64,000 bases of DNA. It comes from Wickerhamiella versatilis. Its lineage: Eukaryota. The stretch covers positions 1-64,000 of the forward strand of contig JAQOWU010000004.1 in the NCBI GenBank assembly GCA_030867685.1. The letters are read 5' to 3'. The first letter of the stretch is position 1. Each line of letters opens with the position of its first letter. Positions 18,147 to 63,738 of the stretch are shown here, piece by piece. Under the pieces are notes generated by a model, which saw nothing but the letters and a program-made list of their open reading frames with translations, was not told where the DNA came from and ran no database searches. The position numbers were made by a program, and so were the translations under genes.

Positions 18147-18396
18147 AAGCTACTTTTGGTTCCAAGAGCTTATACTAGAGATATAGCTACTGCAAGATCG
18201 CTCACAATCCAATTGCCCACCTACATTTCAAATCACTGGAATTTGGCAAGGTTCTCAGGGAAAGACACCTTTTCATCATAAGGTGATAAATGTGGCTGAA
18301 AGTACTGCAATTAGAATTGGAAGTTAATATATTCTAAATCCCGCATGAGGCTTTGGTCAATTTATGGTTTTTGCTCTATTAATGACCGAAACGAGG

Positions 18397-18894
18397 CTAT
18401 TTTTTCTTTTCATCACGAGAATTGCGTGGGGCTGGCCATATCACACCAACACTTCTCATGCCTTTGATCATGTCCATGTTTGGGTGCTCGGCCACTACAT
18501 CCCTGTACGAAGGGCTGCCTATCACTGACGACTTAAATTTGTCCATTGTGGCATTTACTTGCTCTTGTAACTCCTTTGGTAGACCGAATTCCTCATATGT
18601 TGCATATAAACAATCCATCATGCCATCCCAGTGCTCCTGGGTCAGCCCCATTCCACGGTGTGCTGTCAACATGCTACGTCCTTTATAAATGATCGGTCCA
18701 CCCCATTCACGGGCAAGAAAATCACTGAAATTCTTATGCTCCTCAAGGAACCGATCCTCACCCATGTGGGCCCATATGTGTTTAATCGATGGATGTACAA
18801 ATGCTTTCTTGAACGCGGCTGATGAGAAAGCGGATATATTGTCGTAGCCACCTAGCTTTTGGTATAACGAGGCCTCACCTGTTTCCACAGACAT
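18397..18894 (-). CDS. Group I truncated (2/2) haemoglobin-like protein with C-terminal extension
   Basis: SLYQKLGGYDNI, WGGPIIYKGRSMLTAHRGMGLT (proximal His). First ATG is 18894; the ORF-track start is a GTG. Confidence 0.8.
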   Translation of the reverse strand: MSVETGEASLYQKLGGYDNISAFSSAAFKKAFVHPSIKHIWAHMGEDRFLEEHKNFSDFLAREWGGPIIYKGRSMLTAHRGMGLTQEHWDGMMDCLYATYEEFGLPKELQEQVNATMDKFKSSVIGSPSYRDVVAEHPNMDMIKGMRSVGVIWPAPRNSRDEKKK

Positions 18895-19229
18895 TTCCGG
18901 CAAGCAAGACACAACAATTCAGAAACCTAAAGTAAAGGTTGCTATCAGCTTATTATTAAGTATAATGATTTATATAACGTGAATCATTGGACTATTAGGA
19001 TTTGTCAGAAAGCTAGTTCTATATACCAACGTCTTTGCAAGTTAGAGTTGCCGTAGGTAAGATGGTAAATTAAACAACCGGTATTTTCTTTCCGATTTTC
19101 AGAGAACTGTGTAATCGAAAAAACTCTTGGACAGTCGCTGATCGAAAGGGTTAAACTAACTTGAAACAAAGATAAGGATGCAGCTGACATAATACAATAT
19201 CTATACCCTCCTGCAAAGACAACCGTAGA

Positions 19230-20204
19230 ATGGTACATTTCAACTACAAAGCAGCAGTTGTACAGGCGGCACCGGAATTCTTGGACCTTGATGCCTCTGT
19301 AAGTAAAGTCATCAGGCTCATTAATGAAGCTGCGTCGGCTGGAGCAAAGCTAATTGTGTTTCCTGAATGCTATATTCCGGGTTATCCATGGTGGATCTGG
19401 GTGATGACTCCCGCTGCTGCTATTGAAAAGGGGTTCGTGAGTCGTTACTACGATAATTCCCTTACTTCTGATAGTCTTCACTCCAAGAAGCTACAGGCAG
19501 CCATTGCGGAAGCGGGGATTACCGTAGTGCTTGGGCTGACAGAACGTATTGGTAACTCATTGTATATCGCGCAATGGACGATTAGTTCAGAAGGAACAAT
19601 CGTCAAGCGTCGACGTAAACTGAAAGCGACACATTGTGAACGCTTTGTATTTGGTGAGGGCGACGGCAGTGATATTTCTGTAAAGGAACTACCTGGCATC
19701 GGGAAATTGGGGGCTTTGAGTTGCTGGGAACATATACAGCCCCTAGTGAAATATGCAATGTATTCTCAAGAAGAACAAGTACATGCCGCGGCCTGGCCGA
19801 GCTTTTCGGTTTATACCAATCTTACATCGTCGCTCAGTACAGATGTCAATACTGCAGTGGCTAGAACGTATGCAATTGAAGGCGGGTGCTTCGTGCTTTC
19901 CTCCTGTGCCACAGTTTCTGACAAAATGATCGACGAGCTTTGTGGGGATGATCCTGAAAAGCTGAGGCTTCTTCAAGCAGGAGGAGGGGCTGCGAGAATC
20001 TATGGCCCAGATGGTACCGAACTCGCCGAGCCGTTAGCACCCAACGATGAAGGGATTTTGTACGCAGAGGTTAATAGCCGGTTCATTGATATCGCTAAGA
20101 GTACTGCTGACCCTATAGGCCACTATTCGCGCCCCGATGTCCTCCGATTAATGTTCAATCCTGAGAAACAGGAAAGAGTTGAGGATTTCACAGAAGAGCC
20201 TTAA
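19230..20204 (+). CDS. Nitrilase (carbon-nitrogen hydrolase, branch 1)
   Basis: Catalytic triad motifs VFPECYIPGYP, RRKLKATHCER, LSCWEH; C-terminal DPIGHYSRPDVL. Confidence 0.92.
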   Translation: MVHFNYKAAVVQAAPEFLDLDASVSKVIRLINEAASAGAKLIVFPECYIPGYPWWIWVMTPAAAIEKGFVSRYYDNSLTSDSLHSKKLQAAIAEAGITVVLGLTERIGNSLYIAQWTISSEGTIVKRRRKLKATHCERFVFGEGDGSDISVKELPGIGKLGALSCWEHIQPLVKYAMYSQEEQVHAAAWPSFSVYTNLTSSLSTDVNTAVARTYAIEGGCFVLSSCATVSDKMIDELCGDDPEKLRLLQAGGGAARIYGPDGTELAEPLAPNDEGILYAEVNSRFIDIAKSTADPIGHYSRPDVLRLMFNPEKQERVEDFTEEP

Positions 20205-20291
20205 GTACATTAGTGTACTACGAAACTGAAGAATGACAGTCTAAGTAACCAGTGTAAACCTCATAGGACTTATAAAAATTTTTAAGTGAAT

Positions 20292-20353
20292 CTGAAGGCT
20301 AGTTGGACAATTCAAGATAAACCACTTACTACCTGGGACTGGTTAAAAAATGC
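20292..20353 (-). repeat. 41-bp repeat, ~1.5 head-to-tail units
   Basis: CTGAAGGCTAGTTGGACAATTCAAGATAAACCACTTACTACCTGGGACTGGTTAAAAAATGC. Confidence 0.85.
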
Positions 20354-20881
20354 GACACGACTCGTTGCACTACTCTTTGCCAATTCACATTTATTCTACC
20401 TGGAAATAATCAGGACCGTCTTTACTTTGAGGATTGTTCATATATGAGGTGGGTTATCGTGCTCTCTCTTGTTAATTGCTAATCACTTAGTGAAGGATTG
20501 CCCAGTGTGGGTTAGTTAATCATGACGAGGTAGCGTATCTTGGCCACTACTCGCGATTGGCGTTGAGGTATCATCCTTAAGTGTACTTGTCTTATTATTG
20601 AAATTTATACAGCACTATCAGACTATCTTCAATGCTCATAGAGACTTTCGTCATATCTGGTGTCGTGCGGCACAGATCCGTAACCAGCCGGCTAAATGGC
20701 CACTAGACTGTTCATGACCCAATCTGATACTTATTCTGATATCCAAACAAGCTAGCTTGCAATATGACGGGGTCTCATATTGTAAACTTACTATGATCTC
20801 AGCCAACATAGATACTAACTGTAAATTCAGGCTTTTTTTTATTGGATTTTTCTCTGACAATCTGGGTTGACGTGTAGGGGT

Positions 20882-20922
20882 GTGGGCTACCTTGCATTGT
20901 CGAACCAGTGTCCGGTAGTAAA
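20882..20922 (+). repeat. 41-bp repeat, about one full unit
   Basis: GTGGGCTACCTTGCATTGTCGAACCAGTGTCCGGTAGTAAA. Confidence 0.9.
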
Positions 20923-24180: not shown

Positions 24181-25222
24181 ATGTCAATAGAAGGGATGTA
24201 AGACCAATCGTAGCCTGAATATATTAATAACCCGATATTACCACCAGTTATTTACAGTAATGGAAAAATCAAGGTCCCATTGGGTCATGTCTTACGTTAA
24301 GATCGTCTTCATCGATGGCGCTCGGAATTTTATTTAGGAGAATCCATAAATATCCCCGTTTTGCAAGTAACTGACACCAGATATAAACTGTTCTTTTATA
24401 CGAGTCCGGAAATATAGATAGTCTTGATCTAAGGCTCGCAATTGGGGCCATGGCTACCTTGAAGTGACTAGGGGTGAAGTTGAGCGCATGTTATGTAATA
24501 TCATGATTCACACATCATTGGAGTTAGCAAGCCGCTATAGCAGGTATTAGAAGCAATTTATATAATTCTTGTTCGGGGATATCACTGATCTTAGACTGTT
24601 AAAAGAAACGAAGTCGTCACTTTAGTGACCTGTCAAAACATATGTCAAAAGATCAGATAGAAGCTCCAGCTAAGACTGAGCCACTAGCTTATTGATATCG
24701 ACAATGATTCACACTAAGCGAGATTTTCGTGGGCAAGATGCATTGGTCAGTGGACGCCATGTCGCCTACCAGGAAGACTAACCACATTGCAAGACAATCC
24801 ATATTTGCAGATATACCATCGTGTTTATACTAAGAAATCTTCGGACTAGTACCTTTCTGAATTTATACCAGTAGACCGTGCCAAATCAATGATTTCACGT
24901 GGGAGTTCACTGGTTTAAACCTTATCCAAAAATATTCCGAAATTTTCATAAGAGGGTCTCCGGGTATCTCGAAATCAAAGTGAAATGAAACACACAGCTA
25001 CATAGCGGTAAATAAAACATTCTGCTACCCACACGTGGTTCCACAAGGCAAGATACTGATACCTGACTTTATGGCACCCCCGGTCATACTACCCTTTCCC
25101 TGGAAACTGTGCGAGGCACTGCTATCAAATTTCGCAGATAGCAGTGTAACTGTAACATAGTAAGCATACTAACAGAAATTCGTTATTTCCGTCAACAATA
25201 TAGCAGACGGTAAGCTTCCCAG

Positions 25223-26848
25223 ATGTCCGACACGTGCGAAAGAGATTATACATGTGCGGAGCCGGAGTTAGGAAGAGGAGCGGAGGAAAAAGTCACCACG
25301 AATGTGACGAATTCTAAAATAGATACACTCCACTTAGTTCAACATGCGGAAAATGCTGATCAAGCAATGAAATATGCACATAACAGTCATGAGTTCGACC
25401 AGGTTGGCAGGGACATAGAACGGAAATTAAAGCGAAAAACTGACTTGTTTGTGATGCCTCTGCTTATTATTATATATGCATTACAGTTTGCAGATAAGGT
25501 ATCAAACGGAGGAGCTTCAGTAATGGGCCTGCGCTCGGATCTAAACATGAAGGGAAACATGTATTCATGGGTTGGGGTAAGTTTTTATCTCGGCGAGATT
25601 GTGGGACTCATCTTTGTTTGGTCTCTTATCCAGAAATTCCCAGCTGCAAAGTTAACAGCAACCATGATTACTGCGTGGGGAGTAATCATGGCCTGCTCTG
25701 CTGCCAGCCAAAATTACGCCGGATATATCGCATGCCGCGTTTTACTTGGAATGGTAGAGGGAGTTGTGACGCCAGCCTTCTCTTTAATCACAACACAGTG
25801 GTATCGTCGAGATGCTGGTGAACAGTTTTCACGCACAAACTTTTGGTTTGGAGCCAATGGTATCGGCTTAATTATTGGCACATCCCTGGCTTATGGTTTC
25901 TACATACGCGATTCGTCTACCATAGCCGGATGGCGTGGTCTTTTCATCTGTCTTGGCTGCATGACAATTGTTTTTGGGATCGTGTTTTTTGTTCATATCC
26001 CCGATGACCCTTTAAAAGCGTGGTTTCTAACTGACGATGAAAAAATGTGGCAAGTTGAACGTATCCGTCGCAACAATAAGGGATTTGGTAGCCATCATAT
26101 TAAATCATATCAAATCAGAGAATGTCTCAAAGATTTACGTTGGTATCTGTATATGGCAATAATGTTTTTGGGCTGTATACCTATCGGAGGACTGACCAAC
26201 TTTGGCACTATCATCCTTGGGGGTATCATTAAGGGAAATGCTGTACCAGTAATAGAAGGGGACCCCAGAATGAACGATATTTCAGCTCGTTCCCTACTCA
26301 TGCAGTTGCCACAGGGCGGTACATCGTTTGTTGGGTGTGTACTGGTTGGTGTGGCCTCTTCATATATTCTTAAAAATTACAGAACACTTTACGGAGTATT
26401 TATCGGCATGATCAATATATTAGCGTTCTGTTTTCTTGCATGGGGATTCAATTCGGGTAGCAGGCTTTTTGGTCTCTACACTTGTGTATGGAGTAGTACT
26501 GCTTTGCTTATCGTAAATCTCTCGTGTATTCAATCAAATATGGGAGGGACAACAAAGACTCTAGTGGCAACAGCTAGCTGCATGCAGTTTTACTGCTGTG
26601 GTAACGCTCTAGGTTCAAGCGACGCTCTTTTTAAGCCGTCCGAAGAACCAGATTATCATACAGCCAAGGTAACCATGGCAGCATGTGCTTGCATTCAGAC
26701 ATTCCTCATAGCAAGTCTTTATGTAGTGTACCTGGTTGAAAACAAATTGCGTGACCGAAAAAATGAAAAACTTCCACCAGGCATTGATCATCCTGAATTT
26801 GCTGATCTCACAGACATGGAAAACCCCGAATTCAGATACGTTTATTAG
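25223..26848 (+). CDS. Allantoate/ureidosuccinate permease-like MFS (Dal5 family)
   Basis: LQFADK, LGMVEGVVTPAFSLITTQWYRR, PDDPLKAWFLT, C-terminal EFADLTDMENPEFRYVY. Confidence 0.85.
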   Translation: MSDTCERDYTCAEPELGRGAEEKVTTNVTNSKIDTLHLVQHAENADQAMKYAHNSHEFDQVGRDIERKLKRKTDLFVMPLLIIIYALQFADKVSNGGASVMGLRSDLNMKGNMYSWVGVSFYLGEIVGLIFVWSLIQKFPAAKLTATMITAWGVIMACSAASQNYAGYIACRVLLGMVEGVVTPAFSLITTQWYRRDAGEQFSRTNFWFGANGIGLIIGTSLAYGFYIRDSSTIAGWRGLFICLGCMTIVFGIVFFVHIPDDPLKAWFLTDDEKMWQVERIRRNNKGFGSHHIKSYQIRECLKDLRWYLYMAIMFLGCIPIGGLTNFGTIILGGIIKGNAVPVIEGDPRMNDISARSLLMQLPQGGTSFVGCVLVGVASSYILKNYRTLYGVFIGMINILAFCFLAWGFNSGSRLFGLYTCVWSSTALLIVNLSCIQSNMGGTTKTLVATASCMQFYCCGNALGSSDALFKPSEEPDYHTAKVTMAACACIQTFLIASLYVVYLVENKLRDRKNEKLPPGIDHPEFADLTDMENPEFRYVY

Positions 26849-27152
26849 ATTAGATTTCGTTGGCTCTAGCATATAACCATTGACATATTACTCAACATGT
26901 TAGATAGAGGTAAATTTTGCAAAGATAGCCCACTTTTAGCTTTATATATTCCGCTTATATCAAAAAGCTTGGAAATTTTGTGGGGTCATTTCATCGTGTG
27001 TGCGGATTAGTAATGTTAAGTTCATGTTAAGTCTGGTCGGCAGTTATCTATGTATATCCCTTAGCCCATAGCAATCGTTAGCCCATGTCCTGTATAGCAT
27101 TACACTGCTCGAGAAATAAAGTTATAAGGTCATAAGTTAGAGATTGATGAAT

Positions 27153-27949: not shown

Positions 27950-28333
27950 TAAGAGGGAAAGCTTACATACCTTAGATGTAACATTTCTCTATAGCTAAGA
28001 GGATTATTACTAATATTCTCCCTTGGATTTCTTTTGTGTGTTTAGTTTTGTCGTGCTCATAGAATTTGGATACTTCCAGTATTCAAATTATTGTAATTGA
28101 GAATAATATAGCTGTTTCATCGATGTTATCGCAGTTAGTGCGGAGATTGGAGCCGCAATCAGTCCGGAGAGGCCCATGTAGATACACACTCACTCACTGA
28201 GGCGCGTATGATTGTTGCCACAGCTCAACTCAAATAGTTACTGTGGCAGTCGATATACAGCCAACAGAATAATGTAGGAAGGAATAACATAAATCAACTT
28301 CTTGCTCATTTTTGCCCCGCCTCTCATCAGGCT

Positions 28334-28379
28334 TTGGACAAATTTGCGTAGCCCATATATGGCTATCTTGCACTGTCCA
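28334..28379. repeat. Inverted pair of 41-bp repeat fragments
   Basis: TTGGACAAATTTGCGTAGCCCA (-, degenerate), spacer TATAT, GGCTATCTTGCACTGTCCA (+). Confidence 0.7.
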
Positions 28380-28446
28380 CATGTATATATAATTTATCAA
28401 GACTAATATACAGTATCAAAGGTACGCTCCCCAAGTACGTGGTGCC

Positions 28447-28472
28447 GTGGGCTATCTTGCATTGTCCACCAG
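28447..28472 (+). repeat. 41-bp repeat fragment capping the left end of a duplicated segment
   Basis: GTGGGCTATCTTGCATTGTCCACCAG. Confidence 0.95.
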
Positions 28473-28794
28473 ATATTGATCATCCTGAATTTCCACAGAC
28501 ATGGAAAACCCCGAATTCAGATACGGCTATTAGATAAGATTTCGTTGGCTCTAGCACATAATCATTGAGATGTTACTCAACATGTTAGACAGAGGTGAAA
28601 TTTGCAAATGTTTAGCTTTCTATATCTCGCTTACATCACAATGCTTGGAAATTTTGTAGGGTCATTTCATCGTGTGAGCGGATAAGTAATGTTGAGTTCG
28701 TTAAGTCTGGTCGGCAGTTATCTATGCATATCCCTTAACCCATATCAATCGTTAGCCCATGTCCTGTATAACATTACATTGCTTGAGCAACAAA
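28465..28794 (+). repeat. Diverged direct copy of 26773-27120 (3' end and 3' flank of the Dal5-like gene)
   Basis: Shared blocks ATTGATCATCCTGAATTT, CACAGACATGGAAAACCCCGAATTCAGATACG, GTTAAGTCTGGTCGGCAGTTATCTATG, AATCGTTAGCCCATGTCCTGTATA. Confidence 0.95.
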
Positions 28795-28851
28795 TGCAAC
28801 ATAGCCCACTTCACTAACTGAGACTGCTTGGACATTGCAAGATAGTCCACT
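28793..28851 (-). repeat. 41-bp repeat, ~1.4 tandem units capping the right end of the duplicated segment
   Basis: AATGCAACATAGCCCACTTCACTAACTGAGACTGCTTGGACATTGCAAGATAGTCCACT. Confidence 0.95.
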
Positions 28852-29692
28852 GGCCAGCAAAATTCACACGTTAAATGTTCAAACTGTCAGTATTAAAAAA
28901 AACAATGCTGGTTGGATATATCCACGAATGCAACGCTGGCACAAACAGTAGCAATGTGTCAACGGAGAGCCGCCGCATTTTTGGAATTCGTATAAGTACA
29001 AGTTAACCCAAGAAGTTGATTACAAGCATAGCGTGCGCCGAGGTGGAGATGTATTTACCCCACACAAGATAGTTTGTTATCGCGTGAATAACATCGCATG
29101 TATTGATTAATTTATCTCGAAGTTACCAGTCTCTATCGCTACTCGTTGAACAAGGATATATTTATAATCCCGGAGAAGAATTCTAACATTACGTTGCCAA
29201 AATTCGAAGTATAAGAGCATCAATGTAATTGCTAAGAATAAAAACGATCTAGAGATAATATTGAAAAAAAGCAATTCGAAGAATACTAGTTAGCGGTTGC
29301 AATTGCCAAAAATTAGGAGGTATAAGCTCCGGTTTACTTCATACTACCCCATGATTGTGGTTGAGATAACACTAAAGATAAATCATAATTATAGATCCAA
29401 CTTTACATATTATCACAGACAAAGCAGTTACATAGCACATAACTTGAACCTCGCCGATTCTCTGGGGCAGAAAATCAATACTGAACCGCATAGAACACGC
29501 TGCGTCTCCGCCACGTTTTCGAACGCTTTCAACCATCCGGGACTATCAAGAAATCGTGCCTTAGATGCGAGGGAAAGGATAAAATAGCGTAGAATTAATT
29601 ATGGTGAGGCATGGAAAGTCTTGTCGAGGTGCTGCTGGCAGAACTTACTTTAGCGATAAATGCGGTTAGGTTCAAGTGGGGCTACACAAGGC

Positions 29693-50110: not shown

Positions 50111-50130
50111 CTGGCTGGACAATGCAAGAT
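50111..50130 (-). repeat. 41-bp repeat fragment
   Basis: CTGGCTGGACAATGCAAGAT. Confidence 0.85.
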
Positions 50131-50630
50131 CACATAATTACAGGATAGCCGGGCTTAGGTATAAAGGGTTGAACGCATTTTGTTGAGGAAGTGACATTAT
50201 GAAGATAGCCTCCTCATATAAGATTAAATTTCAGTAATCCTGAATCTGCTGGACTGTGCAACGTAGCTTGATCTATCAGTCTCGATTTGGGTATATATAT
50301 AAATGGTTCGAATTCTACTCGTGCTGGTATATGTATGGCGTGGATACTTATGTACTTATGACTTATAGATTCTTGTTGGTGACTAATCGATGTACGCGAG
50401 TTACTGGTTCCGCAGTACACGATAGTTTTTCTAGTACGAAATAGACATAAGTTTGGTTATGTGTTTAGTGGTATGAATAAAGAAAAGAGAACCTATATTT
50501 TGCTGCGGTTCTGTGAATGTTGCTAAAATTATGTACGCTATTTTAGCATTATAAATGGGGACTTGTCATCTGAGTCATATGAAGATTAGCCATGCAACTG
50601 TCAACTTCAATTGTGATATTTTTTTCCATT

Positions 50631-50663
50631 CCTGTGACTGGCTGGACAATGCAAGATAGCCCA
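50631..50663 (-). repeat. 41-bp repeat fragment
   Basis: CCTGTGACTGGCTGGACAATGCAAGATAGCCCA. Confidence 0.93.
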
Positions 50664-51023
50664 TATTTAAGACTCACGTCCTCTTTGTGGATGGAGTTAC
50701 CAATCATGCCGTAATTGGCTGGTTGGGAGGGCCGGGAATATCGATATGTAGTATTTAGTGATGAATTGTCAATAATATGGCTCTTGCTCCCCACCTTGAA
50801 CTGACGCTTGAGAAGAGGAGTAGTTGTCCGGATAGCTGGGATACCAACAAATACTGATTTATCCAGCGAGAAAGCTCAAACTTGGTAGATCGAGAGAGGC
50901 TGTCAAGAAGTATGCATATCAATGTGGTATGTGCCAATATGTTGTTCGCATATCCCGATACATCAGCCATTAGAGCCGACTCCGGCTTCATTGCCGCTGC
51001 AAAGCCTGACAGTAAAAGAGCAA

Positions 51024-51045
51024 CTATATTGCATTTTCCAACCAG
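51024..51045 (+). repeat. 41-bp repeat fragment
   Basis: CTATATTGCATTTTCCAACCAG. Confidence 0.75.
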
Positions 51046-51330
51046 ACGAATTAACGCATGGACATCTGGTTGCTTTCTTTATAGTGACACACGTTCTGAG
51101 GGTTATCTAGAATGCAAAACAGAGATTCTCATAAGGAAAGGCATTGATTCTGCTCCTACTTAAGCAATCTAGCATAGAATTTAAATTAAATATTCATCCA
51201 CAAAGATACTAGCATAATGTATAAATTCATATATCACGCTAGAGACAAAAATTTTCGTGAGCACATCATGAAGGCTCTCACCACGGAGTGTGGAGAGCTA
51301 AATAGTAAAGAAAATGCAGCAAAATATTTT

Positions 51331-53007
51331 CTAAGAGGGGTTAACTCCTTTGTCTTGATAGTCTTCATTAGACATTCGCTCAAACTTCTTATCTGCATCC
51401 AGAACTTGGGCGAACTTGGATTTTTTTCGGACATAAGGACCCTTTGAGTAAAAGATGTAAATTGGTATGACTACAAGTATCGAGATACACCCAAGAATTG
51501 TTGAAGCCCACTGATGGTTCAAGTCATGTTTTTTATCGATGTTATCATATAGGGGATTTGCATACATTGTTGAAACCCCCGCCAGCAGGTCTCGCGCAAA
51601 TCCATTTCCACCAGTTGCCGAGGCTGAATATGGGCCATACGCAGCGATCATATAGTCTATCGTTGCTTCATAGATAGAGAAATTTGCAATGCCAACACAC
51701 GCAAAGAACAGTGCAGGGGCAATCCATGGAATATCATACATGCCGCGCTTACCAAAACATGTCCAACCGAACCCAAAAAGCCCTATGGGTTCCAAAGGGG
51801 CAAGGAATAATAAAAGAAGTAACCTTCTTTCAGCCAACCGTGACTCATCACCAAACCTCTTGGACAAATTTATTTGACGCGCAACATCTATGAAATGCAA
51901 GCCGTAAGCAATTATATATCCCACAAGTACTGACACATAAAATATGCCCGTCGCTGTGTTACCAAACCCCCAGCCGTCACCAAGAACATCCCCAAGCGAA
52001 TTCATAAACATGAATATCAATGCATCTGAGAAACCTGAGAGGAGGGACAAGCTCAATACGATGAGCTCCCGCATAAACATTTCAAAAGGTCTCTTCCAAA
52101 TTAGCAAGGCCTTTTTTGGGGTGATTTTGTTATCATTTAGCTCTCCTGGTCCCCATATATTTATATCCTCATGGTTTTCACGTCGTCGCTTTGCCTCACG
52201 ATCTAGCAAAATAGAACACCTGGTTTCACAAGCCAATAAGAAATGAAAAGCTTGAGCAAACACACCAACTATGAGCTGAATCCAAAAAAACCAGCGCCAG
52301 CCAAGATTGTCTTCTGCAATTCCACCAAAAATAGGACCAATCGTGGAGCCAGAAACGCTCGATGCCACTATGAAAAGAACGCCAAATCCTTGATCATGTG
52401 AATCCCACAGATCTGCCACTACCGCTAGTGTAACCGATCCACCTGCACTACAGAGCCCCGTGAAGGCTCGGGCAACGCAGATAGAGGTAAAGTTTGGAGC
52501 AAGTCCACCTAGAATTTGCCAGACATTTACCAGGAGCAATGAAATTTGCATTATCCAAAACCGACCATATTCCTCGGACCATGGCGCCCATAGTTCACAT
52601 CCAATTGCATAGCAAACCATCATTAACATTTGAGACACGCGGACTTTTGGAAGCTTCACGCTTAAATCAGAACTGACTTGAGAAAGGGCATTGGAGTAGA
52701 AAGCCGCATTGAAGTTCATGGAAACCTGAACCATGAAGACTGCCAACATTATTGACCATTTTCTCCACCATGAAAAACTATAGCCGAGCTTTGAATAGCA
52801 ATTTCGCTCGCGTAATTCACGTCTACCATCTTTGCGCAATGTCCCATCCAACCACTTCAGCTGGTTATTACCTTTCTCGTCGGTGAAAGAAACCTCTACC
52901 TCAGCCCCAATATCTTCAACGTAATGTGCAGTTGACTTCATGTGGTCCGGTGCTGATTCGACATCAGGCACTGTCTGCAGCGCAATTTCACTTGTGTGCT
53001 CAACCAT
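51331..53007 (-). CDS. FFZ1: Ffz-type fructose facilitator (DHA1-related MFS)
   Basis: GRRELRERNCYSKLGYSFSWWRKW, VQVSMNFNA, GCELWAPWSEEYGR, AAYGPYSASATGGNGFARD; recognised from memory of the Ffz family. Confidence 0.7.
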   Translation of the reverse strand: MVEHTSEIALQTVPDVESAPDHMKSTAHYVEDIGAEVEVSFTDEKGNNQLKWLDGTLRKDGRRELRERNCYSKLGYSFSWWRKWSIMLAVFMVQVSMNFNAAFYSNALSQVSSDLSVKLPKVRVSQMLMMVCYAIGCELWAPWSEEYGRFWIMQISLLLVNVWQILGGLAPNFTSICVARAFTGLCSAGGSVTLAVVADLWDSHDQGFGVLFIVASSVSGSTIGPIFGGIAEDNLGWRWFFWIQLIVGVFAQAFHFLLACETRCSILLDREAKRRRENHEDINIWGPGELNDNKITPKKALLIWKRPFEMFMRELIVLSLSLLSGFSDALIFMFMNSLGDVLGDGWGFGNTATGIFYVSVLVGYIIAYGLHFIDVARQINLSKRFGDESRLAERRLLLLLFLAPLEPIGLFGFGWTCFGKRGMYDIPWIAPALFFACVGIANFSIYEATIDYMIAAYGPYSASATGGNGFARDLLAGVSTMYANPLYDNIDKKHDLNHQWASTILGCISILVVIPIYIFYSKGPYVRKKSKFAQVLDADKKFERMSNEDYQDKGVNPS

Positions 53008-53278: not shown

Positions 53279-53347
53279 GACTGATTAGACAATGCAATAT
53301 GCAGAAAAACATTGATAGAGACTGGTTGGACAATGCAAGGTGGCTCA
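53279..53347 (-). repeat. Two 41-bp repeat fragments about one unit apart
   Basis: GACTGATTAGACAATGCAATAT and GAGACTGGTTGGACAATGCAAGGTGGCTCA. Confidence 0.88.
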
Positions 53348-55767: not shown

Positions 55768-57462
55768 CTACATCTGGGCACCAAGCATCCAGGGGACCAT
55801 TTCTTCTTTGCCCACATCGAGAGCTTCACTCTTGCTAGGCTCGCCAGAAGCCAGAGTGATAAACCGACGGAAAATCTCCTCGCCCTTCCTAGCAACAGTA
55901 GTTTCACCGTCAATGATGTGACCACAGTTGATGTCCATATCATCCACCATGCGATTATACATAGGCGTGTTAGTGGCAAGCTTGATGGTAGGAGCAACTC
56001 TTGAACCGAAACAAGACCCACGTCCAGTTGTGAAGGCAAGAAGTGTGGCACCACAGGCAATTTGTCCTGTAGCACCCATGGGATCATACCCAGGTCCATC
56101 CATGTACAGCAAACCCTTTGTGTCAAGGGGCTCTGCGTACCTATAGACTCCCTGTAGTGGGGTAGATCCACTTTTCGCAACGGCTCCCAGTGACTTTTCT
56201 AAAATCGTGGTGATACCGCCCTTCTTGTTTCCAGGTGTCGGGTTGTTGTCGATACTGCCGTTTTCGCGTGCAGCATAACCTTCCCAGTCATGGATGATAT
56301 CGACAATCTTCTCTCCAATTTCCTTGGTTACCGCACGGCTCGTGAGCATCATCTCGGCACCGTAAATTTCTGGTGTCTCGGTAAGAATAGCTGACCCGCC
56401 CTGGGCAACCAGAAGGTCGACTGCTTTACCCAATGCCGGATTAGCAGTGAGAAGAGAATATCCATCTGATCCACCACATTGCAAAGCCACTGTTAGGTGC
56501 GAAAGTGGTAATGGCTGTCTTTCGGTCTTATTGACCTCGGGCAAAAGACCCTCAATAACCTTGATAGCTGCATCAGCAGTCTTCATCGTTCCGCCCTTTT
56601 CCTGCATAACCAATGGAACCAAGCGGGAACCTGGCTTTACATGCTCAGTCATAAAAATGGCATCCATCTGATTTGCCTCGCAACCGAGACCAATGACAAT
56701 AACCGCCGCGAAGTTCGGATGGACGATGTAGCCACCGATGGTACGGCGCAACTGTTTGATACCCTCACCGTTCCAGTCAATACAGCAGCCAAATCCATGA
56801 GTGATGGGTAAAACACCATCGATATTGGGAAACTGTTTCAGGATGTCCGACTTGGCAAAATGGTCAGCCACCTTACGAACAGTGGTTGCCGAGCAATTGA
56901 CAGTACTGATCACGCCAATTAAGTTGCGTGTCGCTCCGCGTCCATCTGGACGCAAATGACCATTGAAAGTCAGCTCCTCTTTTGGCTTCTCAACTGGTCT
57001 CACTTTGCTACAGAAAGCATAGTCACGCTTGAAAGTGTGTCCCATGGCGAGGTTATGAACATGCACGTAGTCACCCGGAGCAATGTCTTTGGTCGCAAAA
57101 CCAATGATCTCGCCACATTTGTGAACAGGTTCACCCTTCCTGATACTATGAATAGCAATTTTGTGACCATTGGGAACATCAGTATCAACTGTTATTTTCT
57201 CAGGTAAATCAAGTACAGTACCGTTGGGCAAATCCTCGCGAGCCACTACTATATTATCATGGTCGTTGAGTAAAACAAACTCATCGCTTGTGCCCTTATT
57301 CCAGGTTCTCTTAGAGTTAGAATCACTAGGCCTCAGCGGAGTCGTGTGGAATTGCTTCGCTACACCAGGGTAAATAGAAGAGCGTTTGAAGGCCAACTGC
57401 TGGGGACGAGCAGAACGAAGAGCAGCTAAAATAAGTTTGATATTGATTCTGAAAAGGGGCAT
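55768..57462 (-). CDS. UxaA/GarD-family (altronate/galactarate) dehydratase with predicted mitochondrial presequence
   Basis: SAF domain (DNIVVA..GHKIA..GDYVHVHNL), TRNLIGVISTVNCSAT, HGFGC, LQCGGSDG, NPTPGNKKGGITTILEKSLGA, FTTGRG. Confidence 0.88.
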   Translation of the reverse strand: MPLFRINIKLILAALRSARPQQLAFKRSSIYPGVAKQFHTTPLRPSDSNSKRTWNKGTSDEFVLLNDHDNIVVAREDLPNGTVLDLPEKITVDTDVPNGHKIAIHSIRKGEPVHKCGEIIGFATKDIAPGDYVHVHNLAMGHTFKRDYAFCSKVRPVEKPKEELTFNGHLRPDGRGATRNLIGVISTVNCSATTVRKVADHFAKSDILKQFPNIDGVLPITHGFGCCIDWNGEGIKQLRRTIGGYIVHPNFAAVIVIGLGCEANQMDAIFMTEHVKPGSRLVPLVMQEKGGTMKTADAAIKVIEGLLPEVNKTERQPLPLSHLTVALQCGGSDGYSLLTANPALGKAVDLLVAQGGSAILTETPEIYGAEMMLTSRAVTKEIGEKIVDIIHDWEGYAARENGSIDNNPTPGNKKGGITTILEKSLGAVAKSGSTPLQGVYRYAEPLDTKGLLYMDGPGYDPMGATGQIACGATLLAFTTGRGSCFGSRVAPTIKLATNTPMYNRMVDDMDINCGHIIDGETTVARKGEEIFRRFITLASGEPSKSEALDVGKEEMVPWMLGAQM

Positions 57463-57829: not shown

Positions 57830-59287
57830 ATGTATTTCAGCCTAGGCGCCGCAATATGGATGGGGATTAAGCCACTGGTTAAGATATATGGGACAATTGG
57901 TGCAGGATATCTTGCTGCGCATAAGGGGGTTCTTACACCACAGTCAGAGAAAACCATCTCTTGGATGGTTTTATATTTCTTTATACCGGCACTTATTTTC
58001 TACAATATTGTGTCCTACATCACGGACACCGATATCGAAATGCTAGGTGTCATTTTCCTTTCTGGAGCAATATATTATGCGCTCGGCCTTCTCTACGGAA
58101 TAGTGCTGTACTTGATTTCTCCTATCCCACGTGGATGGATTGGGGGATTATTACTCTGTGCCATGGTGAATAACTCATCTGACTTACCGGTTGCTTATGT
58201 TCAAACCATTGGAAGCTCGACTTTGATGCCTGAGGGATCTAGCAACTTAGGTAGCGCCTATGCAGTCCTATTTAGCACCATTTTCTACATCACCACATTC
58301 AATCTTGGTGGGAGTAGGCTTGTTGAATGGGATTTCACGCGATCTGATCCATACAGAAATGAGGGTACAAAGCCATTGCTAACGTGGAAAGGGTGTAAGC
58401 AACTCTGGAAGGAGCGTGTATCAAAGAAATCCAGCACGGAAGATAATCCAAATCACGACGACCAGGATGAGCATCAGCCAGATGACAGCGAAATAGGGAT
58501 CTTGCCGTTACACCACAGAGAATCTGCGGTGAACACACCTGGAGGGGCCAATATTGCTAAAACTTCACCAGGTGGTACAGGTAAGAACACCAATAGTGCT
58601 GAGAGCGAAGAACCGAAGCCAGAACCCCAGGTGCCTAAAACAGCTTGGCAGAAGTTTAGACAGATATGGAATAATTTTGAGAAAAAAAACCATGTAACGA
58701 TGTTCATTTGCCACTTCATTGAAGATATTAAAAGACCGCAGATGCTCGCGTTGATTTCCGCTATTGCTTGTGCCATGATTCCCTGGGTAAAGAGATGTTT
58801 TTCAAATGAACAGATTATTGGTGGTTTCAGGGACCCACCCGATGGATTGCCACCACTGGATTTCATCATGGTATTTCTCAGCTTTCTAGCAGGAGCTCAA
58901 ATTCCCCTCGGTTTAATTATGGTCGGATCCAACATTAAGCGTCTCAAACTTGGGAGGCTTGTTCCTGGGTTCAAGCGCACAGCATTTCTATTAGCGGCCT
59001 TCAAACTAGCAATCCTACCTATCATTGCCTGTGGCTGGATCGTGGCACTGCGCCAAATGGGATGGATTGACAAAAATGACCCACTAGCTGCCGTGGTTTT
59101 GGCAGTGGATGCCTCAACACCTTCTGCTACAGTGCAAATTTACTTGACAGAGTTGCTTGATGATCCCAATGGTGAGCGACCAGAACTAAATGCTTTTGGC
59201 TATTGCCTGATCATTCAGTATCTTTTTTTGCCAATATCAATAGTAATAGTGGTTGCGTTTGTGCTGAAACATTTTTCTGCTGCTTAA
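57830..59287 (+). CDS. Auxin-efflux-carrier (AEC) family membrane protein, Ecm3/YNL095C-like
   Basis: IKPLVKIY, NSSDLPVAYVQT, acidic central loop, FKLAILPII, PSATVQIYLT. Confidence 0.8.
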   Translation: MYFSLGAAIWMGIKPLVKIYGTIGAGYLAAHKGVLTPQSEKTISWMVLYFFIPALIFYNIVSYITDTDIEMLGVIFLSGAIYYALGLLYGIVLYLISPIPRGWIGGLLLCAMVNNSSDLPVAYVQTIGSSTLMPEGSSNLGSAYAVLFSTIFYITTFNLGGSRLVEWDFTRSDPYRNEGTKPLLTWKGCKQLWKERVSKKSSTEDNPNHDDQDEHQPDDSEIGILPLHHRESAVNTPGGANIAKTSPGGTGKNTNSAESEEPKPEPQVPKTAWQKFRQIWNNFEKKNHVTMFICHFIEDIKRPQMLALISAIACAMIPWVKRCFSNEQIIGGFRDPPDGLPPLDFIMVFLSFLAGAQIPLGLIMVGSNIKRLKLGRLVPGFKRTAFLLAAFKLAILPIIACGWIVALRQMGWIDKNDPLAAVVLAVDASTPSATVQIYLTELLDDPNGERPELNAFGYCLIIQYLFLPISIVIVVAFVLKHFSAA

Positions 59288-60086
59288 AAGTAGGGCAGAC
59301 CAATTCACTTTGTTTTTGAAAGGATATTTTTGATGATTAGGCATTTCTTATGAGCTAATAAATAGCAGAATAAATCTTATACTTCGTTTTGTATTAATAC
59401 ACCCCCGTCCACTTAAGACATCAGCTTGTCCTTTTTAGAGCTGAAATAGAAACACGAGATAGAAATTGCGCGCGTAGTTCTCATATGGCTAGGCAGCTAT
59501 TTCTACTATGTCCCCACTAACCGTTCATGAAAACTTACCATGGGCATACATAGCACACTCCACTACCTGAAACTAGTTCGATAATGTATGCAGATCTCGG
59601 TGCAAGTTAAGGGCAAGGATGTTTCTAGAGTGCACCCGCGGCATGCTGAACCGTCAGGCATTAAACAGTCGGACAAACTGGAAAAAAGTACCGAGGCTGG
59701 AAAAGTGGCATTTTATTCTATTATAAGAGAAGATGGAACGGTTTTCGTTATAAGGGGATGTACTTTTGCCATTCGATTTCAACACGGTAAGGGTCACCCT
59801 GGTCGCTTACAAATAGCCACAGCAACGGGTGCCTTATCCCTGAAAAATTCCCAGATCGTATTTATGATATAGCCCTTCAATCACCACACTAGAACCTATA
59901 ATCGATCACATCTAGCATGCCAATACAAATATCAGTAGGTGTTCAAGGGCATTAAACATAGAGGTAGGCTATCTTACGTTATCCTCAGCAGATAGATACT
60001 TATCAGGGCAGGGTCAGAATCTGTGGGCCTCCTACCGAAGTGCTATGTAGATAGGGAGATGCCTCGCCTATTTTGATCTGTCCGAC

Positions 60087-61762: not shown

Positions 61763-63149
61763 CTAGCATCGAAATTCCTCGTCTTCACACAGTAGCTGTT
61801 GTTCGTGGTCCAATAAATTGACATAAAGATCATAAATGCCAGATCGAGTACAGTCAGGATACAGCACAGCACTATTTATTCTAGGGGAATCAGGACCTCG
61901 CACGGCGATTGGAATCCCGATACCAAAATCCCAGTTGGTCGTCTCAGCTGAGTGCCAGCTCGTGAGCCAGAAACAAGTCTGAGGGAGACCAAAGGGCACA
62001 AGGACAGCTCTTTCATTCGACGACAGTTTAGAGGGAAGTGCCGTTAGGTTGTAAAGGGAGGCACGATGGTCACCAAGTGCGATCGAGCATCGGTTGCTTG
62101 ACGCAGTATAGGAGAGACCATTTATTGGATCCAGTATATCTTCCGCGGATAAGGGCCCGGTGACTCCCGCTGCCATCGCATTGCCAAAATAGCTCGTTGG
62201 AACGATTGATCGCTTGCGGAGATCCACCGGCTGCACAAGCCGCCATTTTTTGCTGCTTTTGTCGAGGGACATATTTGACGACATTCGAATGCGCACGAGC
62301 GCCCTGAATAGGATAGCAACAATGCAGTCGAGCGTTGAAACGTACGTGACTACATCACCAGCTGTAGGCTTGCAAAGATGCTTAAGCCTCATGGAATCAG
62401 ACGCTATCATTCTGTACAATTTGCCAATGCAGGGTGGACCAGCTGGCTTCCTGGGAGAGAGAGGCATCAAGCTTAAGGATTTTGCAGATCCCATGCCTGT
62501 CATTCTCAATAATCAGCTGCTCCCTAGTCTTCGAAGCAATCTCTGTAGTGGGAAAAATTGGAAGACGGTCGTAGCTGTAATCGAAATTGTTAGGCGAAGG
62601 TGCGCTTCCCTCCATATAAGCTTTAGCGCATTTACAGATCTCCGTGATCGCTAAGCTCACAGATGATCCATCAGCAACCATGTGGTTCAGGACGATTGCT
62701 AAGATTACACCCTCACCAGGAACGAAGTTCACCTGCACCAGACATACGGGTCGCTCGTTCATCTTAGCAGGATGATACGTCTCGGCTGGGAGAAGACACG
62801 AGAGGTCAAGGTCATCTGGCGCAAATGACCGTTGAGCGAGATCATTATATGATTTGTACTCGCCTAATCTGAACTTGCGCATATTAACCTTTGGTGTACT
62901 AGCAGGCGACATCCGTGGCAGCGGTCTCCCCATTTCGTCAAGAATAATTTTTGCCGCAAGGGGCGGAAGCCGCTCACATGCCTTTTCCAATCCGAGTTGC
63001 AGTGAATCAATCATATGTTGGTCGTCAGTGTCTGACGGCAACTTGTATATCACAAAGAAAGGCACTGGAACATCAAACATCATCATGTCTTGCACCGCCA
63101 ACGAGTATGGATCCGCTAACTGTCCGTCTGCTTCAGCTGATGGCTGCAT
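61763..63149 (-). pseudogene. Frameshifted Tri101/Ayt1-like (BAHD-type) acyltransferase
   Basis: N-part has QVNFVPG..LNHMVADG (HxxxD); C-part has PVDLRKR..YFGNA and WDFGIG (DFGWG-like). The two frames overlap at 62397-62509; first ATG 63149. Confidence 0.78.
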
Positions 63150-63279
63150 GTCACTACTATTATAAAAAGTTTGGCGATGTAGCTGCCGCTGCTTTGTTAT
63201 GGGCACTGATGTCCTGTTGGGCTAGGGGGATTTTCACTTAGCTAGAGCTTGTTTGATTTAATGCTTTAGGTACGGTCCA

Positions 63280-63379
63280 TCCAACCAGTCTCGTGCAGCG
63301 TTGAAAAGAGCCCCGCACTTTCGAAATGGGTCACAAGAGGTTATGAATGTTCTTTATATTGTTCCTGGCTATCTTGCAT
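63280..63379 (+). repeat. Two short 41-bp repeat fragments
   Basis: TCCAACCAGTCTC (63280-63292) and GGCTATCTTGCAT (63367-63379). Confidence 0.7.
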
Positions 63380-63563
63380 GCTCCTGATTAAGTTAGTACG
63401 CAGCTGGGGTAACCCTTACCATGTCGAAAGAGAGCGACTAACGTCGATGCCTCTAGAAACGAAAATTGCTCCTGCTATGCTAATAGGCAAAAAGCTCACC
63501 TTGTCGTTTTCGGTATTCTTCCAGGATTTTTCCACAATCTTGGCTAGGAATGAACCACAAATC

Positions 63564-63607
63564 ATCTTGCATTGTCCAACCAGTCTCGGGTAGTGAAGTG
63601 GACCATC
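63564..63607 (+). repeat. 41-bp repeat, full unit
   Basis: ATCTTGCATTGTCCAACCAGTCTCGGGTAGTGAAGTGGACCATC. Confidence 0.95.
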
Positions 63608-63714
63608 CCCCATCTCTATAGAAATAGTATTTTAGGATCCCTGAAACACAGAATTCCTTATCAAGAGAGTTGCTTACCAGGGTGACCCTAAACTACATAA
63701 GTACTATGCACAGG

Positions 63715-63738
63715 TGGACAATGCAAGATAGCCCACTT
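63715..63738 (-). repeat. 41-bp repeat fragment
   Basis: TGGACAATGCAAGATAGCCCACTT, exact match to consensus. Confidence 0.93.

Follow-up and report, generated by a model that had tools for sequence, protein, structure and literature searches.

Short pieces of a 41-nt repeat with a preferred end in a yeast chromosome-end domain, best read as telomerase-made scars

At the junctions of healed chromosomes, telomerase uses as its primer a 3′ end that is non-telomeric but matches at a few bases. For the long complex telomere repeats of budding yeasts, the template spans a single unit and a brief terminal redundancy and is limited by a boundary helix; the telomere units of other yeasts measure 8–26 nt. 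As a general rule, the telomerase product is the G/T-richer strand and has GGG-type runs, and we know of no telomerase product that is not the G/T-richer strand. In budding yeast, Pif1 restrains chromosome healing, the de novo addition of telomeres at breaks (accessible text of PMC5595431). In vertebrates, short interstitial telomeric sequences are inserted by telomerase during double-strand-break repair, with in-register bases as the criterion for such repeats (accessible text of PMC2246262); the available parts of PMC7215372 and PMC8537989 treat the same vertebrate insertions.

We analysed a 64-kb stretch of DNA (the window) from an almost silent end domain of a chromosome in a yeast of the Wickerhamiella/Starmerella clade. 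The window's genes at 34.8–61.5 kb keep the order of W. versatilis genes 05450–05461. According to the accessible text of PMC13376923, W. versatilis has giant 'end' domains that are silent and AT-enriched and in which horizontally acquired genes gather. The window matches these domains in gene order, in the near-zero expression of the genes concerned and in holding a bacterial-type gene, whereas internal telomere-like pieces such as those described below appear neither in the accessible text of that paper nor in the repeat annotation.

From the copies in the window, we deduced a 41-nt circular unit, AGCCCACTTCACTACCTGAGACTGGTTGGACAATGCAAGAT, numbered such that position 1 is the A of AGCCCAC and ..GCCCAC ends at position 7. 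This unit is most likely the telomere repeat of this yeast. The telomere tracts published for W. versatilis (410, 121, 329, 410 and 206 bp in the accessible text) are all within 2 nt of multiples of 41 (p = 2.7e-5, with the unit length fixed beforehand), and a step of 5 fits them as well. The W. versatilis telomere motif is not printed in the accessible published text or supplements, and four 10-mers gave 0 hits in the published repeat library.

With a locus defined as a local alignment to the tandem unit with a score of at least 24, the 64-kb window holds 31 loci, as against a mean of 0.9 in 20 dinucleotide shuffles, where the best score is 27. At a score of at least 30, there are 22 loci in the window and none in the shuffles. 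Chance alone should produce about one of the 31 loci. Throughout the window, GATAGCCCAC occurs at 20 sites with at most one mismatch (2.63 expected), a number reached by 0 of 100 shuffles. The pieces are a real family with a tandem (circular) source. Their density is about one per 2 kb, and 30 of 31 lie outside ORFs, which cover 48.9% of the window (p = 3e-8). Strict alignments measure at most 43 nt, about one template length, in 29 of 31 cases; four loci span 1.2–2.2 units, and the joint GCCCAC-TTCAC is traversed in 8 of 31. The longest single pass (34418–34468, plus strand) runs by alignment from position 1 to 7, i.e., one unit plus a 7-nt overlap, as AGCCCAC...AAGATA followed by ATAGCGCAC with 3 extra nt. 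The best full unit (63564–63607, minus strand; 37/38, score 73) starts at position 4 or 39, runs to 41 and does not end at GCCCAC. The two exceptions to a common end that a previous sequence-only reading had named, 34418 and 63564, are real.

About 2.2 diverged tandem units (1311–1401, minus strand, score 69; strict core 1311–1332, 22/22) end ..TTGGACAATGCAAGATAGCCCA at 1311, and about one unit (20874–20922, minus strand, by alignment) ends ..GGTAGCCCAC at 20882. Pieces that start at position 15 end ..GATAGCCAAC (8974–9007, minus strand, score 58) and ..GATAGCCCA (50631–50663, plus strand, score 56), and 63715–63738 (plus strand, 24/24) consists of TGGACAATGCAAGATAGCCCAC plus TT. Past the stops of ORFs, we find a boundary-crossing piece from 32 to 10/13 (5323–5345, plus strand, 48 nt past ORF 4202–5275), an A-rich variant from position 22 (18117–18146, plus strand, 40 nt past ORF 14856–18077), 1.4 diverged units over the boundary (20296–20353, plus strand, score 65, 92 nt past ORF 19230–20204) and a piece from 7 to 39 followed by TCAC TTCACT, with a 6-nt gap in the unit (34173–34215, plus strand, 197 nt past ORF 32747–33976). 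Likewise, a piece from position 25 ends ..GATAGCCA (36280–36300, minus strand, 4 nt past ORF 36304–40515), another runs from 22 to 2 (51024–51045, minus strand, 286 nt past ORF 51331–53007) and a diverged one from 40 to 35 (59550–59586, plus strand, 263 nt past ORF 57830–59287).

Elsewhere, 1.3 diverged units with 2 extra T cross the boundary (42084–42136, minus strand, score 63), a strict alignment covers 22 to 41 (50111–50130, plus strand), and two aligned pieces, 20 to 41 and 18 to 39/6, are spaced 39 nt apart (53279–53347, plus strand). A diverged piece from 17 to 3 (3143–3170, plus strand, score 31) is inside the probably over-called 5′ part of ORF 1968–3317. At 3862–3914, a plus-strand piece from 1 to 38 (3862–3897) is followed by AAC and an inverted CAAGATGGCCCACT on the minus strand (3901–3914), the latter with a score of 23 in the chance range. 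Weak pieces are found on the plus strand at 14280–14299 and 14376–14396 (scores 25 and 24; shuffles reach 27) and at 25036–25055 (23 to 1, score 25), and two short exact pieces, GAGACTGGTTGGA (63280–63292) and ATGCAAGATAGCC (63367–63379), on the minus strand (scores 26 and 26).

We read ends and starts on the ..GATAGCCCAC strand, using the strict alignments of all 31 loci. Ends fall at unit positions 4–9 in 14 of 31 loci (binomial p = 4.6e-5) and at 5–9 in 9 of 31 (p = 0.0097); the arc from 38 to 10 holds 27 of 31 (Rayleigh R = 0.65), and positions 11–23 have zero ends among the 31. Starts are scattered over positions 11–41 (R = 0.31, p = 0.046). The sequence-only reading had claimed a preferred 3′ end with variable starts and had proposed a genome-wide tally on the circular 41-mer; the window bears the claim out, and the ends tallied within it are not uniform. 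Among the 11 places it had named, nine are real and end at 6–9 (1311, 20882, 26933, 28447, 28850, 32480, 49874, 50663 and 63736/8), whereas 18191–18205 and 42376–42385 (both score 20) are individually indistinguishable from chance. The commonest termini are ..CCA and ..CCAC(T), and four pieces terminate ..GATAGCCA, with one C fewer. On manual reading of the 20 GATAGCCCAC sites, 7 of the roughly 15 non-continuing ones have a T right after GCCCAC. A tail of earlier ends at 38–3 comprises 12 of 31 loci, 4 of 31 ends fall outside the main groups, and 8 of 31 loci overrun the boundary by at least 3 nt. The shared end is a fuzzy preference and no strict rule.

The same asymmetry is seen in alignment-free counts. 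Unit 10-mers with at most one mismatch increase from 7–11 copies for those ending at 10–17 to 20–29 for those ending at 30–8, and then fall from 19 to 10 to 7 for those ending at 8, 9 and 12, which gives a profile that climbs slowly and ends in a cliff; exact 8-mer counts drop from 11–15 to 5–7. Contigs from three public runs (X1–X3), which sample other loci of the genome, lose consensus at the same base as the window's fixed end: 7–10 contigs do so just past GTGGGC at 28447 (agreement 0.46–0.47), 8–11 contigs behind 28468 follow the unit onward (0.58–0.65), and 5–8 behind 34205 share ATAGCCCAC before they diverge.

For four junctions, a paralogous copy shows the earlier sequence; insertion is judged here against paralogous copies within one genome and not against orthologous loci. 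A short insert, (A)GATAGCCCAC(T) (26922–26935, plus strand), is missing from the paralogous copy 28608–28615, and ATAGCCCAC(G) after AAG (49874–49885, minus strand) is missing from the paralogous copy 47705–47707; both paralogous intergenic pairs that hold a piece thus show a 9–10 nt insert ending ..GCCCAC. The other two junctions flank a truncated transporter-gene relic (28473–28792, plus strand), a copy of the last ∼25 codons and 3′ flank of ORF 25223–26848 that is 85% identical to 26773–27120. At one broken end, TGGACAATGCAAGATAGCCCAC is attached (28439–28472, minus strand), with the CTGG-TGGA of the gene copy keeping the register of the unit; at the other, 1.4 units (28793–28851, plus strand, score 93) end ..GATAGTCCAC(T) at 28850/1. 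Both pieces point outward and stop at the boundary. In 4/4 junctions, 2–8 nt of the local sequence are in register with the start of the added repeat, which extends to ..GCCCAC, as predicted by copying of a short hard-edged template. The in-register bases on the variable side are GCAA(A), AAG, TGGA (8/9 with a gap) and (AC)AA. At least 2 nt are in register at 4/4 variable-side junctions (chance 1.5e-5 by a rule of 1/16 per junction), and the fixed sides have 2, 0, 0 and 1 nt.

The best reading of the pieces is that they are interstitial telomere-repeat scars, left by one-pass telomerase copying at broken ends and subsequent end joining. After a break in intergenic DNA, a 3′ end would pair over 2–8 nt with the telomerase RNA template in any fitting register, and telomerase would copy on to the template 5′ edge, usually in one pass of 12–48 nt and rarely in two. 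The enzyme would then release, and end joining would ligate the extended end to another DNA end. Since priming could occur in any register and the template edge is fixed, starts would lie anywhere in the unit and stops at ..GATAGCC(C)A(C)(T); stops before that point may reflect trimming or early release. The outcomes would be plain insertions or joins of unrelated segments, among them the gene relic with extensions at its two ends. A telomerase-templated origin, whichever strand was copied, seems probable to us. The template-boundary interpretation of the sequence-only reading is in keeping with the end asymmetry, the pieces of at most 43 nt, the 4/4 in-register junctions running to ..GCCCAC and the tracts close to multiples of 41. 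Its further claim that the fixed end identifies the synthesised strand fares less well: of the two strands, the one that carries the fixed 3′ end has the lower G/T content (G 9/C 11, T+G 44%), and the fixed point could thus be either the template 5′ boundary or the entry point for the opposite strand.

That the ..GCCCAC strand is the product and the fixed point the template 5′ boundary is a tentative choice, under which the telomerase RNA template would begin 5′-GUGGGCUAUC. The opposite polarity, which we consider only slightly less likely, makes the complementary strand, GTGGGCTATCTTGC..., the product: a broken 3′ end would sit at the template 3′ limit, the shared point would be an entry and not a 5′ boundary, and either synthesis would halt prematurely at scattered positions or the new tail would anneal to the other end via a short stretch of matching bases. 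This arrangement predicts a template with the 3′ terminus ..GAUAGCCCAC-3′ and a terminal strand that, followed 5′ to 3′ to the chromosome end, reads GTGGGCTATC... The unit has almost no G/C strand bias, but its complement (G 11/C 9, T+G 56%) is the sole carrier of a GGG run and by the general rule resembles a telomerase product. Primers paired inside the alignment region would account for the second fixed-side group at 38–3 (12/31), and the T after GCCCAC (7 of about 15) could reflect primer pairing over 1–2 nt. However, the spread starts would demand abort or trimming at scattered positions in most syntheses, and register with the unit is strong on the variable side (4/4) but slight where the primer is supposed to lie (2, 0, 0, 1). 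This polarity also needs default priming without pairing, unlike the yeast behaviour we are aware of; to our knowledge, such priming at a default position is known from ciliates only. The inverted pairs are divided. At 28334–28379, two head-to-head pieces (TTGGACAA..TAGCCCA, TATAT, GGCTATCTTGCACTGTCCA; right arm score 33, left arm 15/22 by eye) have fixed ends 5 nt apart, as would be expected of two extended ends ligated tip to tip; the opposite polarity would take two events at this one spot. The palindrome at 32480–32502 (AGTGGGATATC-TTGCAA-GATAGC, with TTAG on both flanks) has two arms with fixed ends outward and favours the opposite polarity, in which one event extends both ends and pairs them via the self-complementary TGCA. 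Under the ..GCCCAC polarity, the palindrome needs two events.

Other readings are less likely. Selection might preserve a functional DNA or RNA element with the core TGGACAATGCAAGATAGCCCAC, for example a telomere-type protein site acting as terminator, insulator or silencer, while the rest decays to leave a shared edge. This 22-mer recurs exactly at 1311, 28447 and 63715 and nearly so at 28361, and the region is transcriptionally silent in W. versatilis. All 8 pieces within 300 nt of a gene 3′ end share the gene's orientation, with the variable side facing the gene (8 vs 0, p = 0.008); a simple random-break model does not predict such a bias, which also counts against the telomerase reading. 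Nevertheless, the fresh inserts of just 9–10 nt in the two paralog comparisons are too short for a site, starts extend over 30 positions, many pieces lack half of the supposed core, the copy profile is a slope plus a cliff with no peak, and the in-register junctions are left unexplained; we regard such an element as very improbable. Captured ends of linear repeat-bearing DNA (eroded chromosome ends, linear mitochondrial or plasmid DNA), inserted at breaks by microhomology joining, would have one end fixed by the terminus and one made variable by random breakage, and matching bases at the variable junction would follow. The sequence is also abundant, since the summed contig depth of piece-bearing bins is 20–70 times that of neighbouring bins, a figure that is no copy number. 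This origin is very improbable: breakage of 120–410 bp tracts should yield many longer pieces, but 29/31 are below about one unit, 8/31 cross the supposed terminus, and a chromosome terminus of the usual polarity would have its fixed end on the other strand. A DNA transposon or miniature element that bears the terminal inverted repeat GTGGGCTATCTTGCATTGTCCA and has left these remnants is the least credible source; the fixed end would be the element tip, and the short pieces would have arisen as footprints of excision or by internal deletion of copies. The segment 28447–28850 does resemble a 404-bp element with 22-bp inverted ends, and several single genes (e.g., ORFs 32747–33976 and 51331–53007) are situated between outward-reading pieces. 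Yet its interior is the copy of a gene 3′ end, a target-site duplication is absent at 28447/28850 (left ..GGTGCC, right TGGCCA..), 8/31 copies continue beyond the putative tip into a further unit, the sequence shows circular permutation, and the published W. versatilis library with its 0 hits is without such an element.

As telomerase-made scars, the pieces can be compared with three known systems. They share with the complex repeats of budding yeasts the expected template layout, the longest single pass of ∼48 nt being one unit plus a 7-nt overlap, whereas 41 nt would far exceed 8–26 nt and almost no G/C strand bias is seen. With budding-yeast chromosome healing, they share the use of a briefly matching, non-telomeric 3′ end as primer; healing yields a full telomere with loss of the distal arm, whereas here about one pass is added and the end is rejoined to leave an internal scar. 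Compared with the vertebrate insertions, the unit has 41 nt and not 6, so that most inserts are shorter than one unit and the register can be read at both junctions, which reveals the fixed edge. Other differences are the density of about one per 2 kb, the comparison of paralogous copies of one genome instead of orthologous loci, and the flanking telomerase RNA pieces, which are not seen in the window. The likenesses, as far as the accessible text of PMC2246262 describes them, are a telomere-like repeat present as an insert relative to an empty site, last pre-insert bases in register far above chance, and small deletions or filler bases at the other junction. The scars are best read, by analogy, as a candidate yeast counterpart of the repeats inserted by telomerase in vertebrates.

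The 41-nt unit was found by repeat finding and short-word BLAST; its sequence closes on itself with a period of 41. We numbered it as AGCCCACTTCACTACCTGAGACTGGTTGGACAATGCAAGAT, with position 1 at the A of AGCCCAC, and the terminus ..GATAGCCCAC thus falls at position 7. Local alignment of the tandem unit against the window yields 31 loci scoring at least 24, of which 22 score at least 30; twenty dinucleotide shuffles give a mean of 0.9 loci and a top score of at most 27. The pieces occur about once per 2 kb, and 30 of the 31 lie outside ORFs of at least 200 aa, which cover 48.9% of the window (p = 3e-8). The sole piece inside an ORF probably reflects an over-called start of ORF 1968–3317. Most pieces fall short of a full unit (29 of 31 measure at most 43 nt), and the longest single pass, 34418–34468, runs from position 1 to position 7, i.e., one unit plus a 7-nt overlap. 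Four loci exceed one unit: 28793–28851 (59 nt), 20296–20353, 42084–42136 and 1311–1401 (∼2.2 diverged units). Indels of the longer copies gather close to the edge, as at 42103, 20325 and 34205. An exact scan of public metagenome contigs with a 22-mer spanning the boundary and a 19-mer ending there gave no match.

The sequence-only reading had proposed that the pieces share a common end at ..GCCCAC and have variable starts, and both observations hold under strict scoring. Fourteen of the 31 ends fall at positions 4–9 (p = 4.6e-5) and nine at positions 5–9 (p = 0.0097), and the starts are spread around the unit (Rayleigh R 0.31, p = 0.046, 31 loci). Of the 11 places named in support, nine are genuine, with ends at positions 6–9, whereas 18191–18205 and 42376–42385 score 20 and are individually indistinguishable from chance. 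Overall, 27 of 31 ends lie within the arc from position 38 to 10 and none at 11–23 (Rayleigh R 0.65); among the 22 loci scoring at least 30, 10 end at positions 4–9 (counted by hand). An alignment-free 10-mer profile (at most one mismatch) climbs from 7–11 to 20–29 copies; the counts then drop to 19, 10 and 7 for 10-mers with their last base at positions 8, 9 and 12, respectively. Exact 8-mers fall across the edge from 11–15 to 5–7. The end asymmetry is therefore real, and the edge is a preference: the main termini are ..CCA and ..CCAC(T), four pieces lack one C and read ..GATAGCCA at the end, and a further 12 of the 31 ends sit a few bases earlier, at positions 38–3. Scans of the window for tRNAs and Rfam families returned zero hits each, and the ..CCA terminus is not that of a tRNA.

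Self-comparison of the window gives four paralogous pairs; two of these are intergenic and contain a piece of the repeat, each time as an insert of 9–10 nt. At 26922, copy A reads TTTGCAAA-GATAGCCCAC-TTTTAGC and copy B (28605) reads TTTGCAAA-TG-TTTAGC; at 49874, copy 2 reads GATCTT-CGTGGGCTAT-CTTACC and copy 1 (47705) reads GATCTT-ATG-CTTACC. On the ..GCCCAC strand, the two inserts are preceded by GCAA(A) and AAG, respectively, in register with the unit, and they stop exactly at GCCCAC. The verified inserts include pieces of 12–14 nt that retain no more than the final third of the 22-mer core proposed for a conserved site.

Two further junctions are provided by a relic at 28473–28792, which duplicates the last ∼25 codons and the 3′ flank of transporter gene 25223–26848. 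Its coding part, the frameshifted end of an MFS transporter (28473–28545; ..PPDIDHPEF.. / ..TDMENPEFRYGY*), is truncated within the coding region at the very point where a repeat piece starts. At the left end of the relic, CAATGCAAGATAGCCCAC comes after the gene's CTGGTGGA, and the DNA beyond it is unrelated; at the right end, TGCAAC... comes after ..AACAAA and continues for 1.4 units as far as ..GTCCAC(T). At each of the four junctions (two inserts and two relic ends), 2 nt or more on the variable side are in register (1.5e-5 by a 1/16 rule), and the fixed sides of the same junctions have 2, 0, 0 and 1 nt. Vertebrate interstitial telomeric repeats have been attributed to telomerase on the basis of such in-register bases (PMC2246262), and this break register is seen at four of four junctions here. 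The empty site expected for telomerase-inserted telomeric sequence is likewise present in both paralogous pairs, and two further junctions lie at the relic ends.

Contigs from three public sequencing runs, in which 91–92% of the words sampled from a 10-kb stretch occur, were mapped on 28300–34500. Bins bearing pieces have a summed contig depth 20–70 times that of adjacent bins; this is contig depth and hence no copy number, and it indicates that the unit sequence is present in many other contigs. Beyond GTGGGC at 28447, 7–10 contigs per run turn to unlike sequence (agreement 0.46–0.47), and behind 28468, 8–11 contigs keep to the unit (ACCAGTCTCAGGTAGT.., agreement 0.58–0.65). Behind 34205, 5–8 contigs read ATAGCCCAC and diverge thereafter, and a few low-depth contigs link 34205 directly to 34417/8, a true tandem. 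These contigs independently back the same edge at other genomic loci, in part. The pieces 28793–28845 and 34173–34207 are present, too, in a fourth run, which comes from a related organism. An assembly artefact is ruled out, since contigs of the three runs span 28496–29668 and 33267–34229 without difference.

The pieces fit copying off a short, sharply bounded template. A yeast telomerase template is expected to comprise one unit plus a short overlap. The mostly sub-unit pieces, the longest pass of one unit plus 7 nt and the clustering of indels at the edge point to one-pass telomerase copying, by which broken ends would be extended once and rejoined afterwards. This reading of the sequence is a good lead, as yet unproven. 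Captured ends of long tandem DNA would also place unit sequence at breaks, but such capture would yield longer pieces. Decayed old arrays are ruled out by the fixed end and the fresh 9–10 nt inserts. The tip of a DNA transposon or miniature inverted-repeat element would likewise provide an end; however, a tip would stop the sequence, and 8 of the 31 copies pass through GCCCAC/TTCAC by at least 3 nt into the next unit. These read-through copies, together with the loci longer than one unit, show that the source is a tandem array without a physical tip at GCCCAC. A transposon should also leave a target duplication, but the flanks of 28447 and 28850 differ, and only 32480–32502 has TTAG on both sides.

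A conserved cis-acting binding site would leave the verified 9–10 nt inserts unaccounted for, and the copies do not keep a whole core. The pieces are not tails of reverse-transcribed mRNAs: no A-run precedes the piece at any of eight gene-tail junctions, and one of the pieces begins 4 nt past the stop codon. Read-through into the telomerase RNA was rejected because 30-nt flanks past the fixed end have no obvious common sequence, and foldback duplication at 28334–28379 because the arms differ within and outside the repeat and are thus separate copies.

The weak point of the sequence-only reading is polarity. It had taken the ..GCCCAC strand as the telomerase product and the fixed end as the 5′ boundary of a template beginning 5′-GUGGGCUAUC, an assignment that we regard as tentative and less likely than not. 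In its favour, yeast telomerase pairs at variable registers and then runs to a boundary, and the in-register bases lie at the variable side. It is also favoured by 28334–28379, where two pieces stand fixed end to fixed end with TATAT alone between them, as expected of two extended tips that were ligated. Base composition counts against it: the ..GCCCAC strand has 9 G and 11 C, T + G amounts to 44%, and the only GGG run is on the complement. With the complement as product, which we consider slightly less likely still, the product would read GTGGGCTATC.. and the fixed end would be where copying enters a template ending ..GAUAGCCCAC-3′. The near-palindrome at 32480–32502, AGTGGGATATC-TTGCAA-GATAGC with its fixed ends outward, would then arise in a single step, both break ends being extended as GTGGG..CTTGCA and paired via the palindromic TGCA, but 28334–28379 would require two events. 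Each polarity thus explains one of the two inverted pairs by one event and the other by two.

Among the pieces within 300 nt of an ORF 3′ end, the variable side faces the gene in eight cases versus none (p = 0.008, post hoc); these eight, downstream of stop codons (5323, 18117, 20296, 26922, 34173, 36280, 51024 and 59550), have the gene's orientation. At ORF 5′ ends, the orientations split 2 versus 3. Outward-reading pieces flank ORFs 1968–3317, 32747–33976 and 51331–53007, weakly 4202–5275, and also the relic; inward-reading pieces flank ORFs 29693–31276 and 34851–35951. Such a pattern could stem from gene-sized segments with extended ends or from selection on transcribed 3′ flanks.

The window has a yeast-like G+C content of 40–49%, with a long ORF once per 2–3 kb, and encodes, among others, five MFS transporters, three GT25 glycosyltransferases and a carboxylic-acid-reductase-like enzyme. 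The closest named relatives of its mitochondrial phosphate carrier are from Starmerella bombicola (60%) and St. bacillaris (57%). The genes at 34.8–61.5 kb have the same order as W. versatilis genes 05450–05461 in PMC13376923 Supplementary Data 6: GT25, three unannotated genes, Medusa, two others, MFS, mitochondrial phosphate carrier, altronate/galactarate dehydratase, ECM3/auxin-efflux and a gene labelled as Pezizomycotina-acquired. Rows 05421–05426 of that table correspond, in reverse, to the window genes from 22.6 to 6.1 kb, and the matching W. versatilis genes have TPM values of ∼0–5 (PMC13376923 Supplementary Data 6). From this gene order, we take the window to sit in a silent 'end' domain of W. 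versatilis or a close relative.

The Wickerhamiella/Starmerella clade is known for acquiring bacterial genes (PMC13376923). The phosphate carrier and the dehydratase gene of the window both point to this clade. The altronate/galactarate-dehydratase-type gene (55768–57462, minus strand) shares 72% identity over 89% of its length with Acetobacter proteins, and the best 120 matches listed are all bacterial; the published table (PMC13376923) classes its W. versatilis match, 05459, as 'Native', and the gene looks like an unrecognised bacterial acquisition. Three GT25 paralogues lie within 35 kb (1968–3317, 4202–5275 and 34851–35951), and the matching W. versatilis gene 05450 is labelled Pezizomycotina-acquired in the same source (PMC13376923). 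A PA14/GLEYA adhesin-like ORF of 1403 aa (36304–40515, minus strand) contains ∼18 tandem 132-bp (44-aa) repeats of 86% identity and, at its 3′ end, three 87-bp repeats (36404–36673, minus strand). The acyltransferase at 61763–63149 (minus strand) is split into N-terminal (TRI-like) and C-terminal halves over two overlapping ORFs in different frames and either is frameshifted or has a short intron. Two stretches of 4–6 kb, 40516–44785 and 45659–51330, are devoid of ORFs of at least 200 aa and may contain decayed genes; they hold a 358-bp duplication (47443–47800 / 49619–49975) and an inverted 174-bp pair (42823–42996 / 48090–48263).

With 41 nt and almost no strand bias, the unit would be, to our knowledge, unusually long for a yeast telomere repeat. 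Telomere tracts of W. versatilis measure 410, 121, 329, 410 and 206 bp (PMC13376923 Supplementary Data 12), and all are at most 2 nt off multiples of 41 (p = 2.7e-5 for a unit length fixed beforehand). Among units of 9–60 nt, 41 is the sole fit; a step of 5 also fits. The tracts of W. domercqiae (480, 241, 150 and 241) and St. bombicola (460, 441, 261 and 480), from the same table (PMC13376923 Supplementary Data 12), fit units of 30 and 20 nt, respectively, or divisors of these, and long telomere units may be general across the clade. The literature searched, including the text of PMC13376923 and part of its supplements, contains no printed telomere motif for Wickerhamiella, Starmerella or 'versatilis'. 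Likewise, six 14–16-nt substrings of the unit do not occur in the papers searched.

That pieces lie so densely in an end domain that is silent and acquires genes suggests that break repair, gene acquisition and long-range silencing are linked. This yeast lineage is reported to be poor in DNA-repair genes. On a broader and distinctly improbable reading, one-pass telomerase copying would be a routine means of sealing breaks and of stitching in gene-sized segments, possibly horizontally acquired genes, within chromosome-end domains, and the scars, which lie ∼2 kb apart on average, would recruit telomere-binding silencing proteins, which would account for the silence of end domains over more than 500 kb. 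If so, both edges of the 41+7-nt telomerase template could be read from the scars without biochemistry. The telomerase RNA is predicted to have a template of ∼48 nt with one edge at GUGGGCUAUC or its complement. If confirmed at chromosome ends, the 41-mer would be a test case for the evolution of telomere proteins and template boundaries. In vertebrates, the 6-nt unit of telomerase-made internal repeats conceals the register, whereas the 41-nt unit of the window exposes it; every scar would keep its start and stop on the template, and the genome would thus log where telomerase engages and releases non-telomeric ends.
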